The position numbers were made by a program, and so were the translations under genes. A model generated the notes under the pieces. That model made no database searches, had not been told where the DNA came from, and was given only the letters and a program-made list of their open reading frames with translations. A stretch of 58,311 nucleotides of DNA from a virus (Duplodnaviria; Caudoviricetes): positions 1 through 58,311 of IMG/VR virus record IMGVR_UViG_3300045742_000023; one strand, given 5' to 3'. This document shows, in pieces, positions 15,395-28,705 of the stretch. Each line of letters starts with the position of its first letter. The stretch's first letter is position 1.

Positions 15395-15441
15395 TTAGAT
15401 ACGGACACCGCTGTTTAGTTCTTATCTTTACATACCTTTAC
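15395..15441 (-). promoter_or_regulatory. sigmaE/AlgU-type promoter with CpxR-like box, upstream of helicase-polymerase operon
   Basis: Minus strand: GTAAA-GGTAT-GTAAA, 5 nt, GAACTA-N16-TCTAA. Confidence 0.65.
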
Positions 15442-15551
15442 ACTGATGGTAAAGAGGGGGTATGGTGCGGTTATCGTAGACTTACTCTGTAAATTTAGGT
15501 CAAGGAAAATCTCCTTACCTACATTAACATTACATCATATGTATAGAAAAT

Positions 15552-15566
15552 CTTACCTATCTTTAC
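15552..15566 (-). promoter_or_regulatory. Additional CpxR-like box
   Basis: Minus strand GTAAA-GATAG-GTAAG just after primase stop. Confidence 0.4.
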
Positions 15567-15579
15567 ACAACTTTTCATA

Positions 15580-16401
15580 TCAATTTTCTCCTAGGAAGGT
15601 GCTAACTATAGCCCTAGCCTCCTTGTTGGGTGTGTCCTTGATATCCTTCCTCAACCTCAGGACACGGCAGGTTCCAAACCTACTACCGTACCTACGCTGG
15701 TACGTAATAGCAGTAGCAGTAGCATCGGCATCCAGTGCTAGTACAAGGTGACGGGTAGCTCCAGCCAATTCCTGTATACGCTTCTCGTTGAGATGCGTAC
15801 CGTTCAAAGATACTGCGTGATACCCTAGCTGGAACAAGGCGATAGCTGATAGAGGGTCTTCCACTACAATCACAACATCCCTCCCATACACATCAGCTAG
15901 AGCAGAACCAAAGTACCAACTCATACCAGTGCTGTCCTTAATCAAAGTAGTATAGGATTTACTCTGACCGGGGCTAGGGCAGACAGGTTTACTGATAAAC
16001 CCTTCGATAGTAAGACGATCCCTACTGTACATGGGTAGTACCAAAACGCTACTATTCCCCGACGTACCCACAGCCTGCTTAATTAGATCACGTATAAGCT
16101 CGTGATTGAACTTATACTCGTACGCATCATTCAACCACGTCTTTACTGGATTGCATAACGCCATCATAGCAGGCCCGTCGCTGAACGTACGTACCTTAAC
16201 TGGCGCGTCACCAGCAGACTCCACTGGTACAGTCTCGATGGGACAACTGTTACGATGGCAGGTAGCTAATACCTTACCATCATTACCTGTCCAGAATACT
16301 AGCGACTGCTCCGTACTGTCACCTCCTTTGCATACGGGGCAGACTGTTCTATAGGGGACAGGATTATCCCCCAAGGCTTGGGCTAGTAATGCTCGGCTCA
16401 T
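15580..16401 (-). CDS. DNA primase (Zn finger + TOPRIM)
   Basis: CPVC...CHRNSC; VVEDPLSA, SLNGT, LALDAD. Confidence 0.85.
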   Translation of the reverse strand: MSRALLAQALGDNPVPYRTVCPVCKGGDSTEQSLVFWTGNDGKVLATCHRNSCPIETVPVESAGDAPVKVRTFSDGPAMMALCNPVKTWLNDAYEYKFNHELIRDLIKQAVGTSGNSSVLVLPMYSRDRLTIEGFISKPVCPSPGQSKSYTTLIKDSTGMSWYFGSALADVYGRDVVIVVEDPLSAIALFQLGYHAVSLNGTHLNEKRIQELAGATRHLVLALDADATATAITYQRRYGSRFGTCRVLRLRKDIKDTPNKEARAIVSTFLGEN

Positions 16402-16607
16402 GATTCCTCCTCCTCTTTAAACTTCTCCGCCTCCATCCTCACAATCTGCTCGTTGTACTCGATTAGCAATCTCTTCAACGCTAGATTAGAGGACTCCAAC
16501 TCCGCAAGTTTGCAATGCAAGCACTCAAAATCCCCGCTTTCGTCTTGGTGCTCGCAGTTGCAGCAGCAATAGCCGCCGGTTTCTTCTTTGGCGCATTGTT
16601 TACTCAT
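16398..16607 (-). CDS. Small Cys-rich coiled-coil protein
   Basis: 69 aa, CCCNC...CLHC, AGGAG RBS. Confidence 0.6.
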   Translation of the reverse strand: MSKQCAKEETGGYCCCNCEHQDESGDFECLHCKLAELESSNLALKRLLIEYNEQIVRMEAEKFKEEEES

Positions 16608-16688
16608 TTCACTTTCTCCTATAAGTTCATTTATATAACGTAAAAGCTATTAATTAGTCAGTGCTTTATAACCCAAAGGTTATTTATC

Positions 16689-16808
16689 TCACTTCCTCCT
16701 TAGTGTAGTTACTATAATGTTAACTATCATTGCACCTAACAGGGCTATAAATAATCCGACTATGATATACTCGGATAAGTTCCATGCCCATAGCATATAC
16801 TTAGTCAT
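16689..16808 (-). CDS. 39-aa single-TM protein (below cutoff)
   Basis: MTKYMLWAWNLSEYIIVGLFIALLGAMIVNIIVTTLRRK; ATGA overlap with ATP-grasp stop, GGAGG RBS. Confidence 0.6.
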   Translation of the reverse strand: MTKYMLWAWNLSEYIIVGLFIALLGAMIVNIIVTTLRRK

Positions 16809-17653
16809 GCGATCACCTCCGCCCATGCGTCTGCCAGTTTATCTACAGTAGTCTGATCGTTAGTAAGTCCGATAGAACTATTAGTTTCAATAGCCCTCAC
16901 TTCAAGCAACTCCTTATCGTCAGACAAGGACGCTATAAGATCAACTGCTCCCCACCCTAGATTGAAGTGCTTAGCTACAGTAGTACCAGCATCCATTAGG
17001 GTAGACTTGTCCTCCTCATTCACGTCGAACGTGTTGCGACAGAAGGCCCACCCATTCTTGTGGGCACGTACCAGCTTGGTATAGATGTTACTCTCTATAC
17101 CTATCCGTTCCCTGCGTTCCTTGGTATACCTACGTTTCTCCACCAGATCAACGCACTTACCTGCTACGATGTACGCTCGGTACTCCCTTACCCTAGGGCC
17201 TGTAAAGACCTTGGTGTACAGGCTAGCATTGGGTAGAGGATCATCAGGAGATATAACAATACCATTACCCTGAGAAGAGCGTATCATTGTACGTGCCATA
17301 ACCCTGCTTCCCTGTTCTATCCACTCCTCCGCTACGCGTCGAGCAGGTGTAGTATCTACAGGTAGCACAGGACAATCATGTAAAGCATTGAACATCATCA
17401 GCTTATTAGATGAGGTCATGATTATCTCAGGCGTATTATACCACGGTACTTCATCAAGGTATCGTGTTGCCCACGGAGGTGCTGTAGTAGCGCCGTGATT
17501 AATCACGTACTTTACTCTGCTACACTGTACTCTCTCGGTATTCCTAGTCACACGTATTACTCTAGGTAAACGTGCTCTCAAGGCTAAGAGTAAGGCATGG
17601 CTTGAGTTACCTCTAGCCCGACTCCTACTATATATCACTACTGTGTCTCTCAT
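16805..17653 (-). CDS. ATP-grasp peptide ligase (phiEco32/PaP3 type)
   Basis: SNKL, SQGNGI, LYTK, REYR, VRAHKNGW, WGAVD, IETNS. Confidence 0.85.
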   Translation of the reverse strand: MRDTVVIYSRSRARGNSSHALLLALRARLPRVIRVTRNTERVQCSRVKYVINHGATTAPPWATRYLDEVPWYNTPEIIMTSSNKLMMFNALHDCPVLPVDTTPARRVAEEWIEQGSRVMARTMIRSSQGNGIVISPDDPLPNASLYTKVFTGPRVREYRAYIVAGKCVDLVEKRRYTKERRERIGIESNIYTKLVRAHKNGWAFCRNTFDVNEEDKSTLMDAGTTVAKHFNLGWGAVDLIASLSDDKELLEVRAIETNSSIGLTNDQTTVDKLADAWAEVIA

Positions 17654-17666
17654 AATCGTATTCCTT

Positions 17667-27191: not shown

Positions 27192-27212
27192 ACGCGTTAA
27201 CAGTTAACGCAA
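27192..27212. promoter_or_regulatory. Palindromic repeat, copy 7
   Basis: ACGCGTTAACAGTTAACGCAA just upstream of the first early RBS. Confidence 0.8.
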
Positions 27213-27249
27213 TTGGTTAAACGACAGCAGAAGCGCCGCCGTTAGATAT

Positions 27250-27255
27250 ATTATA
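27250..27255 (-). promoter_or_regulatory. Possible sigma70 -10 element for early arm
   Basis: Perfect TATAAT on minus strand; no good -35. Confidence 0.35.
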
Positions 27256-27437
27256 AAGAGAAAAAAAGCTGGAGGTAGTTGGGCCATTCAGCACAGCGTT
27301 TCACAGCAAGAAAAGCACCCCCCTGCTTGCTCCCGTGGAGCTACTGAGCGCCATAAATAGGGTACCAAGACCTATGCGGGGCCTATTTCTATCCACTGAG
27401 TATCCTAGATAGCGGGGAACTTCTGCTGATTTTAACT

Positions 27438-27507
27438 GTAAAGATATGTAAAGATGTGTAAAGAAGGGTATAAAGGGATTGAACTTACAGCTTGCGGTAC
27501 TGTCTAA
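27438..27507 (+). promoter_or_regulatory. sigmaE/AlgU-type promoter with triple CpxR-like half-sites, starting the plus-strand arm
   Basis: GTAAA at 27438, 27448, 27458; GAACTT 27481-86, N16, TCTAA 27503-07. Confidence 0.7.
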
Positions 27508-27551
27508 GTCTCTACTCAATACCTAGAGGCCCCAGATAATGGAGGATACGG

Positions 27552-28070
27552 ATGACAGACCTAAGAGCTATACTCAAGGAATTGAAGGAAGAAGAGAAAG
27601 CTCAGCTACAAGAACACTTGGCTAATGTAAAGAAACGTAAAGAAAGTGTCAGATTACGTAAAGAACACAGGGAGAAGTTAGCTAAACGCAGGGAAGAGAA
27701 GGCTGCTGAGAACCAAGAGATAACTGAAGTCCTGCGTAGAGCTAGGACCCAGAAGAGATATCATGAGAAGAATCGCTTCCGTCTCAACCAAGACAGGGCA
27801 CGAAGGGCCAGAAGACCTGAGCAGGTATACAATAGAGCTAAGCGTAGGGCTATAGATAGAGGTCAGACGTGGGAGTTTACGTATGATGAGTGGTATAGGA
27901 TGTGGCAAGAGGCGGAGGATGTTTGTGATCCGTTGACAGGCTTCACTAAGAGTGCTTGGAGCTTGAAGGGAGGTAACTATACCAACAACACACAGATGGT
28001 ACGCACTGACCTAGAAGGTCCGTGGAGCGTAAAGAATTGTAAGATCATGTTAAATGGAGAGATATTATAA
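27552..28070 (+). CDS. Coiled-coil protein with degenerate HNH-like C-terminal domain
   Basis: AKRRAIDRGQTWEFTYDEW...MVRTDLEGPWSVKNC pattern typical of phage HNH-like proteins. Confidence 0.55.
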   Translation: MTDLRAILKELKEEEKAQLQEHLANVKKRKESVRLRKEHREKLAKRREEKAAENQEITEVLRRARTQKRYHEKNRFRLNQDRARRARRPEQVYNRAKRRAIDRGQTWEFTYDEWYRMWQEAEDVCDPLTGFTKSAWSLKGGNYTNNTQMVRTDLEGPWSVKNCKIMLNGEIL

Positions 28071-28384
28071 TGGTTTGGGATGAGAAAGAACGTAGTAAGC
28101 AGGAACTCAAAGGATACCTTAAGGCTATCCTGCTGGTGTTCTTTGCGTTTTGGATAGGAGTGGTAGTGTTGTTTGCTACAGCTCCTAGAGCGTGGGGATA
28201 CGGAGAGTTCTGTGACGCGTACTACCAAGGGTTTGAAGACGGGTATTGCTTGAACGAACAGTGGGCGTGCTACCCGCCACTAGGCGGATATTGCGTTGAG
28301 CTAGATTTCAGGAATGTAGACGAAGCTTACCATAAAGGATTGATTGACGGTAAGAAGAAGTGGGAGAGTATCTATGCAGGGTAA
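28070..28384 (+). CDS. Membrane-anchored Cys-containing hypothetical protein
   Basis: TM segment ILLVFFAFWIGVVVLFA. Confidence 0.6.
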   Translation: MVWDEKERSKQELKGYLKAILLVFFAFWIGVVVLFATAPRAWGYGEFCDAYYQGFEDGYCLNEQWACYPPLGGYCVELDFRNVDEAYHKGLIDGKKKWESIYAG

Positions 28385-28661
28385 AGTGGAGTTCTCAGGA
28401 CTGTGTACCGAGTGTGGTACTAAGTACGGTAAGGGCTTGGACTGGAGTCCAGTATCTACTTACCATACAGGTAGGTGCTTCTGTTGCGGGGAAGTACGTG
28501 CAGTGACGGAGGAAAGAGATTATGGATACCCAGAGTACACGTATCATCCTGATTTCGTAAAAGAAATTAACGAGAGGTTGGAGAACGTACAGAGTATACC
28601 AAACATAAGGTACCGTCTTAACGACACTAGAAAAGGTAAGAGATTGCGTAAGGAAGTGTAA
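28374..28661 (+). CDS. Zn-ribbon hypothetical protein
   Basis: CTECG...CFCCG; ATG 28374. Confidence 0.6.
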   Translation: MQGKVEFSGLCTECGTKYGKGLDWSPVSTYHTGRCFCCGEVRAVTEERDYGYPEYTYHPDFVKEINERLENVQSIPNIRYRLNDTRKGKRLRKEV

Positions 28662-28705
28662 AGATTTGTAAAAGTCGGGAACTTTCTTCACAACTTGTGT
28701 TCTAA
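28658..28705 (+). promoter_or_regulatory. sigmaE/AlgU-type promoter with CpxR-like box, upstream of lysis/virion genes
   Basis: GTAAA-GATTT-GTAAA, 6 nt, GAACTT 28679-84, N16, TCTAA 28701-05. Confidence 0.7.

Follow-up and report, generated by a model that had tools for sequence, protein, structure and literature searches.

Phages without an RNA polymerase or sigma factor of their own must order the expression of their genes, and the known solutions are phage sigmas, sigma-appropriating activators and antiterminators. Here we ask which factors read three intergenic sites (A, B and C) in the genome of a tailed phage, IMG/VR record IMGVR_UViG_3300045742_000023. This record of 58,311 base pairs (bp), a whole viral record rated complete, is referred to below as the window. 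At each site, direct GTAAA repeats ("boxes") precede a two-part core, and an original prediction made from the sequence took the cores for promoters of the host envelope-stress sigma factor sigmaE (RpoE/AlgU) and the boxes for sites of the host response regulator CpxR. Use of host sigmaE together with CpxR is, on sequence evidence, the best explanation that we found, and we hold it to be about evenly balanced between right and wrong.

Three composite sites of one design

The three sites share a single design, in which TGTAAAG repeats phased at 10 bp are followed, after a gap of 4-5 nucleotides (nt), by GAACT(T/A)-N16-TCTAA. Every motif was found where it had been predicted, including the 6 nt (site B) and 5 nt (site C) between the last GTAAA and GAACT. 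The sites and the related repeats in the window are as follows.

27437..27475, plus strand: site A boxes, TGTAAAG at 27437, 27447 and 27457, and a degenerate fourth, GTATAAAG, at 27468
27481..27507, plus strand: site A core, GAACTT-N16-TCTAA, with -35 and -10 elements of sigmaE or extracytoplasmic function (ECF) type, 44 nt upstream of the ATG at 27552
28647..28673, plus strand: site B boxes, CGTAAGG at 28647, TGTAAAG at 28657 and TGTAAAA at 28667, with a 10-bp period
28679..28705, plus strand: site B core, GAACTT-N16-TCTAA, preceding the lysis/virion arm
15442-15426, minus strand: site C boxes, TGTAAAG-GTA-TGTAAAG
15421-15395, minus strand: site C core, GAACTA-N16-TCTAA, preceding the helicase/DNA polymerase operon
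15577-15552, minus strand: additional cluster without a core, box-like TGAAAAG, TGTAAAG and GGTAAGA, about 110-135 nt upstream of site C
27627-27641, plus strand: exact GTAAA-N5-GTAAA pair inside gene g34 (27552-28070)

The exact core GAACT-N17-TCTAA was counted three times, at sites A, B and C and nowhere else in the window, against 0.14 occurrences expected. The exact box pair GTAAA-N5-GTAAA occurred five times against 0.10 expected; four of the five pairs fell at the three sites, and the fifth was the pair at 27627-41. Neither the three cores nor the five box pairs were reached in any of 100 shuffles. Sites A, B and C are all intergenic; summed over the window, gaps 40 nt or longer make up 3317 of the 58,311 nt. 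Moreover, each site faces its downstream genes, as the original prediction had claimed: the g34 operon for site A, the lysis/virion arm for site B, and the helicase and polymerase genes for site C.

Regarding the form of the elements, the GGAACTT-type -35 of RpoE/AlgU promoters was present as GAACTT at sites A and B and as GAACTA at site C, with an N16 spacer to a -10 of the TCNNA form (TCTAA) at all three. The boxes have the tandem direct repeat GTAAA-N5-GTAAA of a CpxR site. Overall, sites A, B and C are very probably real promoters belonging to one class.

The core resembles sigmaE promoters

Among the sigmaE-dependent promoters of Escherichia coli, micA reads GAACTC-N16-TCTGA and rybB reads GAACTT-N16-TCTTA, with RNA starting 6-7 nt past the -10 element. 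We also examined four bacterial genomes that bear the composite (described below). In all four, an RpoE protein scored above the TIGR02939 cut-off, and GAACT(T/A)-N16-TC.. was found upstream of rpoE (4/4), with no boxes there. The predicted geometry was thereby matched both in micA and rybB and in the rpoE upstream regions, and from this match we infer the dependence on RpoE. Judged by this likeness, the core is probably read by a host sigma of the sigmaE type.

Infection as a trigger for such a sigma has a precedent. In infected Pseudomonas, AlgU motifs were reported to be enriched at infection-specific host transcription starts (78/423), and AlgU was recovered along with RNA polymerase purified from phage-infected cells (PMC8244752). 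By analogy with Pseudomonas, where this has been shown, infection can activate an AlgU-type sigma.

The boxes resemble CpxR sites

On the cpxR-sense strand, the E. coli cpxR/cpxP operator reads GTAAA-ACAAC-GTAAAG, which is the same direct repeat as that of the boxes. A single CpxR ortholog is encoded in each of the four composite-bearing genomes, with 48-50% identity and a score of 201-216 bits against no more than 142 bits for the next paralog, and a CpxA-like kinase adjoins it in every case. The recognition helix of these orthologs, PFDRSIDVHISKLRRKL, is near-identical to that of E. coli, PFDRAIDMHISNLRRKL. At all four loci, exactly one GTAA[AGT]-N5-GT[AT]A[AG] pair was found 77-99 nt upstream of the cpxR ortholog, with none in the reversed control; the Halieaceae pair reads TGTAAAG-TTG-TGTTAAG. 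The agreement of the boxes with both the E. coli operator and these upstream pairs fits what had been predicted, and it suggests dependence on CpxR by resemblance. We give even chances to the proposal that the boxes are bound by the host CpxR ortholog.

Divergent open reading frames (ORFs) were viewed at four cpxR-like loci (L082-L085), and a long one was recovered in L082 and L083 only. It is a secreted-protein gene with a Gly/His/Met-rich tract, divergent from the cpxR-like gene and in the place of E. coli cpxP.

The composite in other phages

A metagenome scan with a stricter composite pattern yielded 10 loci. In L097, four boxes and a core stand directly upstream of a g34 ortholog (40% identity), and the composite locus L091 carries primase and ATP-grasp homologs. 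In four others (L090, L093, L094 and L096) the composite lies upstream of an orthologous protein of 214-227 amino acids (43-69% identity), which is full length in three of them, the L090 contig being cut. L092, L095 and L002 belong to a single phage, which encodes a terminase, portal and capsid and shows no similarity to the window at the protein level; L002 was the sole locus found by pattern scans of viral contigs. L098 matches L025 and was treated as chance, and L099 was too short to place. Finally, L003, whose helicase is 63% identical to that of the window, has boxes and GGGAACTT upstream of its helicase gene, reading TGTAAAG-TTG-TGTAAAG-GTAG-GGAACTT. The composite, whose conservation had been proposed as a check, was thus found in related as well as unrelated phages.

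Alignment of 20 sites from phages and two bacterial families gave (T)GTAAAG-N3-TGTAAAG, then 4-5 nt, GAACT, N17-18 and TCTAA. The G and T that flank the repeat are kept across these 20 sites.

The closest cultured relatives by DNA polymerase (about 40-42% identity) are Stenotrophomonas phage StenR_269, Vibrio phage VpV262 and Xanthomonas phage DES1; the gene layout of DES1 is the same as that of the window. StenR_269 and DES1 lack GTAAA boxes, yet they keep the core at equivalent places. In StenR_269, GAACTA-N16-TCTAAGC precedes the first late-arm gene, and a second core, GGAACTA-N16-TCTAT, was picked out by eye. The DES1 cores, at DES1 positions 27481 and 28706, read GGGAACAT-N16-TCAAA and GAACTT-N16-TCTAA. 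As single sites picked up with a relaxed pattern that also matches inside genes, these cores are supportive, not decisive.

Other repeats were seen near the cores of both relatives. DES1 has AGCTTAAT twice, abutting its first core (L013 27440-27470), and many AAGCTCTT/TAAGCT repeats occur in StenR_269 in the gap before the second core (L014, about 15200-15400). To judge from their placement, these may be lineage-specific regulator sites that replace the GTAAA boxes.

The composite in bacterial chromosomes

We scanned bacteria using one genome per species. The 27 matches obtained are about the chance level for the pattern, and none was labelled Enterobacterales. Eight of them represent conserved promoters, in genomes of 62-64% guanine plus cytosine (GC). 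The other 19, which include the near-identical pairs L020/L023 and L018/L032 and the looser pair L021/L037, were treated as background or unrelated.

The conserved promoters fall in two groups. Five Rudaea-like genomes (two of them Rudaea metagenome-assembled genomes, MAGs) carry GTAAA-N5-GTAAAG-CCTT-GAACTT-N16-TCTAA downstream of polA and before the small RNA gene sX13. Using the Rfam model RF02232, sX13 scored above the cut-off at two of the five composite loci, and a further search added two, one above and one below the cut-off. Three Halieaceae MAGs (L027 487-620, L030 and L035) carry GTAAA-N5-TGTAAAG-CACT-GAACTT-N17-TCTAA directly after pspA/B/C-like genes. There, the composite precedes a conserved, terminator-ended RNA of about 85 nt that has no Rfam family. 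The spacing from boxes to GAACT in these bacteria is 4 nt, as at site C. The four composite-bearing genomes examined hold one composite each, with one extra in G001, and none was found with the reversed-pattern control.

sX13 was found in 35 of 121 genomes of the order to which the Rudaea-like bacteria belong, and 32 upstream regions were analysed. A strict sigmaE-type core was present in 11 of the 32 (shuffle mean 0.03) and a relaxed core in 22 (shuffle mean 1.6); the strict core always ended 15-16 nt before the start of the Rfam model. The 11 top-scoring loci, taken as Xanthomonas-type, had no strict core and three relaxed cores, and no sigmaE-type promoter is claimed for these 11. At the sX13 loci that do not belong to the top-scoring group, (G/C)AAC(T/C)T-N15-17-TC.. 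stands before the gene (L016, L026, L033, L039, L040; L044-L075). This pattern suggests that sX13 outside the top-scoring group has a sigmaE-type promoter and a 5' end longer than that of the Rfam model. A CpxR-class match was obtained in 14 of the 32 genomes, the remaining 18 being negative; none of the 11 top-scoring genomes was positive.

The sX13 RNA was reported to accumulate under high salt, at 37 °C and in minimal medium, and the account of it, in the portions available, names no sigma factor (PMC3771888).

Search for a phage-encoded factor

The original prediction had recognized neither an RNA polymerase nor a sigma gene in the phage. For sigma factors this held: a six-frame search gave no match at E ≤ 10 to PF04542, PF04545, PF08281, PF07638 or TIGR02937 (Sigma70_r2, r4, r4_2 and two ECF models), and no sigma was found among the early and site-adjacent proteins in Pfam and PHROGs scans. 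Likewise, an OmpR-type DNA-binding domain (Trans_reg_C) had no six-frame match in the phage record at E ≤ 10. As for RNA polymerases, none was found; the six-frame search for the T7-type enzyme (PF00940, E ≤ 10) was negative, yet it is uninformative because the control genomes were also silent. Controls matched for every other model.

A lead towards an N4-like virion RNA polymerase came from StenR_269, in which a protein is labelled "putative virion-associated RNA polymerase" (vRNAP; L011 36735-43547). According to its description, this label was derived from size, absence of cysteine and helical content only (PMC10747016). The giant ORFs of the window have no PHROG match and no similarity to this protein, and the lead was rejected.

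With about 20 early ORFs unassigned, the absence of a phage factor carries weight for canonical factors only. In the ESM Atlas, neither of the two largest early proteins without an assignment was sigma-like. There, the protein of g33 (26499-27173) had only viral hypothetical neighbours and a weak likeness to winged-helix regulators, with a template modelling (TM) score below 0.5; g32 gave no usable result. No early protein of unknown function is conserved at the BLAST level among the window, StenR_269 and DES1, unlike the core.

Proposed mechanism

We propose that the three sites form a single phage promoter class that copies a host promoter design. Expression would begin with the early genes, whose promoters are probably of the sigma70 type and linked to the palindrome GCGTTAAC-N-GTTAACGC. 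The infection itself, or early products, would then activate the host RpoE and Cpx pathways. The RpoE holoenzyme (with an RpoE/AlgU-type sigma) would start transcription at all three sites, 6-8 nt past TCTAA, in which case the boxes centre near -42 and -52. A dimer of phosphorylated CpxR (two dimers at site A), bound on the phased repeats that abut the -35 element, would help to recruit the polymerase. The g34 operon, the helicase/polymerase operon and the lysis/virion arm would then depend on envelope-stress signalling, probably triggered by infection. The binding partners, activation rather than repression, and the stress trigger are the inferred parts of this scheme.

Because sites A, B and C are of one class, they cannot alone separate replication from late genes, and differences in timing would have to come from elsewhere. 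They could arise from how many boxes a site has (A has four, B three, and C two plus the upstream cluster) or from the hairpin leaders at B and C.

Evidence against and alternative explanations

Several observations weigh against the use of host sigmaE and CpxR. Firstly, sigmaE is normally held inactive, so a lytic phage would need a trigger, and none was identified. Secondly, the composite is found essentially once per host genome, which gives no regulon-level support. Moreover, the phage has a GC content of about 47%, versus 62-64% in the composite-bearing bacteria. At the sX13 loci, boxes were present at 3 of 32, all in CpxR-positive genomes, while 11 other positive genomes had none; the association between boxes and CpxR gave a Fisher p of about 0.07, and these genomes are related. 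Among the phages, the -10 element of L003 is not TCTAA. The relaxed core pattern also matches inside genes (6 matches in StenR_269 and 9 in DES1, in 50 kilobases), and it had five matches in VpV262. Finally, the unassigned early ORFs (among them 26499-27173, 25584-26225 and 24094-25520) leave room for a phage factor.

An alternative that we regard as unlikely keeps host sigmaE on the core and makes the repeats an UP-element-like contact for the alpha subunit, or the site of another OmpR-family regulator. If transcription starts as proposed above, repeats near -42 and -52 would lie where UP-element subsites lie. A/T-rich stretches occupy that position in E. coli micA and rybB, and A/T tracts are found in many sX13 promoters where boxes would lie; each bacterium also has many OmpR-family paralogs. 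However, the flanking G and T conserved in the 20 aligned sites are not required of a simple A-tract. The box cluster without a core at 15577-15552 also speaks against this alternative, as does the occurrence of the same repeat both upstream of the cpxR orthologs in all four genomes and in the E. coli cpxR/cpxP operator.

We consider it slightly less probable still that the core, the boxes or both are read by a highly divergent phage factor, either sigma-like or an activator encoded in the early arm; the likeness to host elements would then be partial mimicry or coincidence. Such a factor could be encoded by one of the early ORFs without a family, and the Atlas model of 26499-27173 is weakly winged-helix-like (TM below 0.5). 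In addition, phiEco32 has its own ECF-like sigma. Against this stand the six-frame searches at E ≤ 10, which gave neither a sigma nor an OmpR-type domain, and the early proteins of unknown function, which are not conserved among the window, StenR_269 and DES1 at the BLAST level whereas the core is. A factor private to the phage would also leave unexplained the composite in the unrelated L092 and in the small-RNA genes of two bacterial families.

That the sites are not promoters, representing instead origin iterons, packaging or recombination sites, or chance, is very improbable: direct repeats with 10-bp phasing would be typical for iterons, and the cluster at 15577-15552 lacks a core, but the same two-part core stands at fixed spacing, in intergenic position and oriented with the downstream genes at all three sites, no shuffle of 100 reached the observed counts, and the bacterial element lies directly before terminator-ended small-RNA genes.

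Genes and leaders downstream of the sites

The genes and leaders that follow the three sites are listed below.

27552..28661, plus strand: site A genes, g34 (27552-28070), 28070-28384 and 28344-28661, with no function assigned
28706..28951, plus strand: site B leader, GC-rich hairpins, one of which is followed by TTTCTAGC
29682-30242 onward, plus strand: site B genes, transglycosylase (29682-30242), tail-like genes and portal (39529-41790)
15297..15394, minus strand: site C leader, hairpin GGGGGCC-TCTA-GGCCCCC followed by TTTCTAAC
11691..15296, minus strand: site C genes, DnaB-like helicase (14082-15296), metallophosphatase (13580-14092) and family A DNA polymerase (11691-13583)

CAATAGCTAA is common to the leaders of sites B and C, as is a GC hairpin with TTTCTA(A/G)C after it. 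The leader of site A is short (44 nt), and its predicted fold is a weak 7-bp stem only. The hairpin leaders at B and C may represent attenuation or antitermination layered on the promoters.

The g34 protein consists of a basic coiled coil and a C-terminal domain with a WEFT(Y/L)(D/E)EW motif. Its AlphaFold2 model, built from a two-row alignment, has a predicted TM score of 0.32, with a long helix and a low-confidence C-terminus. Single-protein queries with g33 and g34 found no relatives in viral contigs. An alignment query with g34 found one distant domain match there, L104 (33% GC), in another context and without the composite.

Genome layout

Two divergent arms and one recurrent palindrome characterize the genome.

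27173 down to 6075, minus strand: early genes, primase, site C, helicase, and replication and nuclease genes (Pfam and PHROGs scans)
from 27552, plus strand: three small genes, site B, transglycosylase, tail-like proteins, terminase, portal and capsid
17669-17692, 23946-23969, 25132-25155, 25557-25580, 26415-26438 and 27194-27217: palindrome GCGTTAAC-N-GTTAACGC, in gaps before minus-arm early genes

The last part of the minus arm runs in the order primase, site C, helicase, metallophosphatase, family A DNA polymerase, exonucleases and endonuclease I. The final one of the six palindrome copies stands some 20 nt ahead of the first early gene, and the palindrome could be an operator or an RNA hairpin marking the early class. 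As it precedes early genes six times, the composite sites constitute a second promoter class.

Within the early arm, an ATP-grasp (RimK-like) protein, a glutamine amidotransferase, an amidoligase, a gamma-glutamyl cyclotransferase and a COOH-NH2 ligase are encoded at 16805-23389. This ATP-grasp/amidoligase cluster is partly common to StenR_269 and DES1. The large terminase is split over two adjoining ORFs, 38052-38792 and 38792-39517, both 48-50% identical to the DES1 terminase, whose gene is likewise interrupted.

The giant ORFs, at 53635-58311 and 2-3811, are open-ended and cannot be joined in frame on a simple circle. A stop lies seven codons past the join, the frame is kept only with two extra bases, and the ends do not overlap; the record probably lacks some bases at its ends.

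No near-identical cultured phage was matched in a near-identity search against cultured phages. In one of two DNA sequencing runs, short contigs of a strain about 98% identical were found over site A, and the other run yielded none; these contigs are uninformative on conservation and on transcription starts.

Comparison with known systems and significance

The bacterial promoters before sX13 in Rudaea-like genomes and after psp genes in Halieaceae have the whole composite in common with the phage sites. They differ in that they are chromosomal, occur once per genome and serve a short terminator-ended RNA, whereas the phage has three copies, protein operons and up to four repeats. E. coli micA and rybB have a like core geometry, GAACT(C/T)-N16-TCT(G/T)A, but their upstream sequence is plain A/T-rich without GTAAA repeats. 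The E. coli cpxR/cpxP operator has a like GTAAA-N5-GTAAAG repeat but serves sigma70 promoters, whereas the phage repeat abuts a -35 element of the sigmaE type. The E. coli degP promoter responds to both sigmaE and CpxR. Phages of the phiEco32 type have their own ECF-like sigma and middle/late promoters that are not of the sigma70 type, whereas no sigma was detectable in the phage described here. The lytic Pseudomonas phage YuA has been reported to depend on host sigma70 and sigma54 (PMC10914365). It resembles the present phage in using a host alternative sigma, and differs in the sigma family (sigma54) and in having no box for a two-component regulator.

The original prediction knew of no phage described with such a composite promoter, and our literature search likewise found no phage with sigmaE/AlgU-type or CpxR-box promoters of its own; the supplementary lists of transcription starts in PMC8244752 and PMC10914365 might hold exceptions. 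We tentatively suggest, at somewhat less than even confidence, that uncultured lytic phages of at least three gene lineages took over a promoter design of envelope-stress small RNAs for replication and virion genes.

If host sigmaE and CpxR do read these sites, post-early development of the phage would be run by a host ECF sigma and a two-component regulator, switched on by the envelope damage of infection, and such a programme would be a first for phages. A host stress sigma combined with a response regulator would be a different solution to the ordering of phage expression, tying the phage programme to the envelope stress that infection creates. The proposal is partly testable, as StenR_269, which has a cultured Stenotrophomonas host, keeps the core, and the phage sites share their core geometry and box sequence with the targets of the E. 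coli K-12 regulators.

On the bacterial side, sX13 is a small RNA that controls virulence in Xanthomonas, and the composite is a new candidate regulatory input for it in genera related to Xanthomonas. If the proposed reading is right, sX13-type small RNAs in some Xanthomonadales would be under sigmaE and Cpx control, and envelope-stress signalling would be a determinant of phage success.

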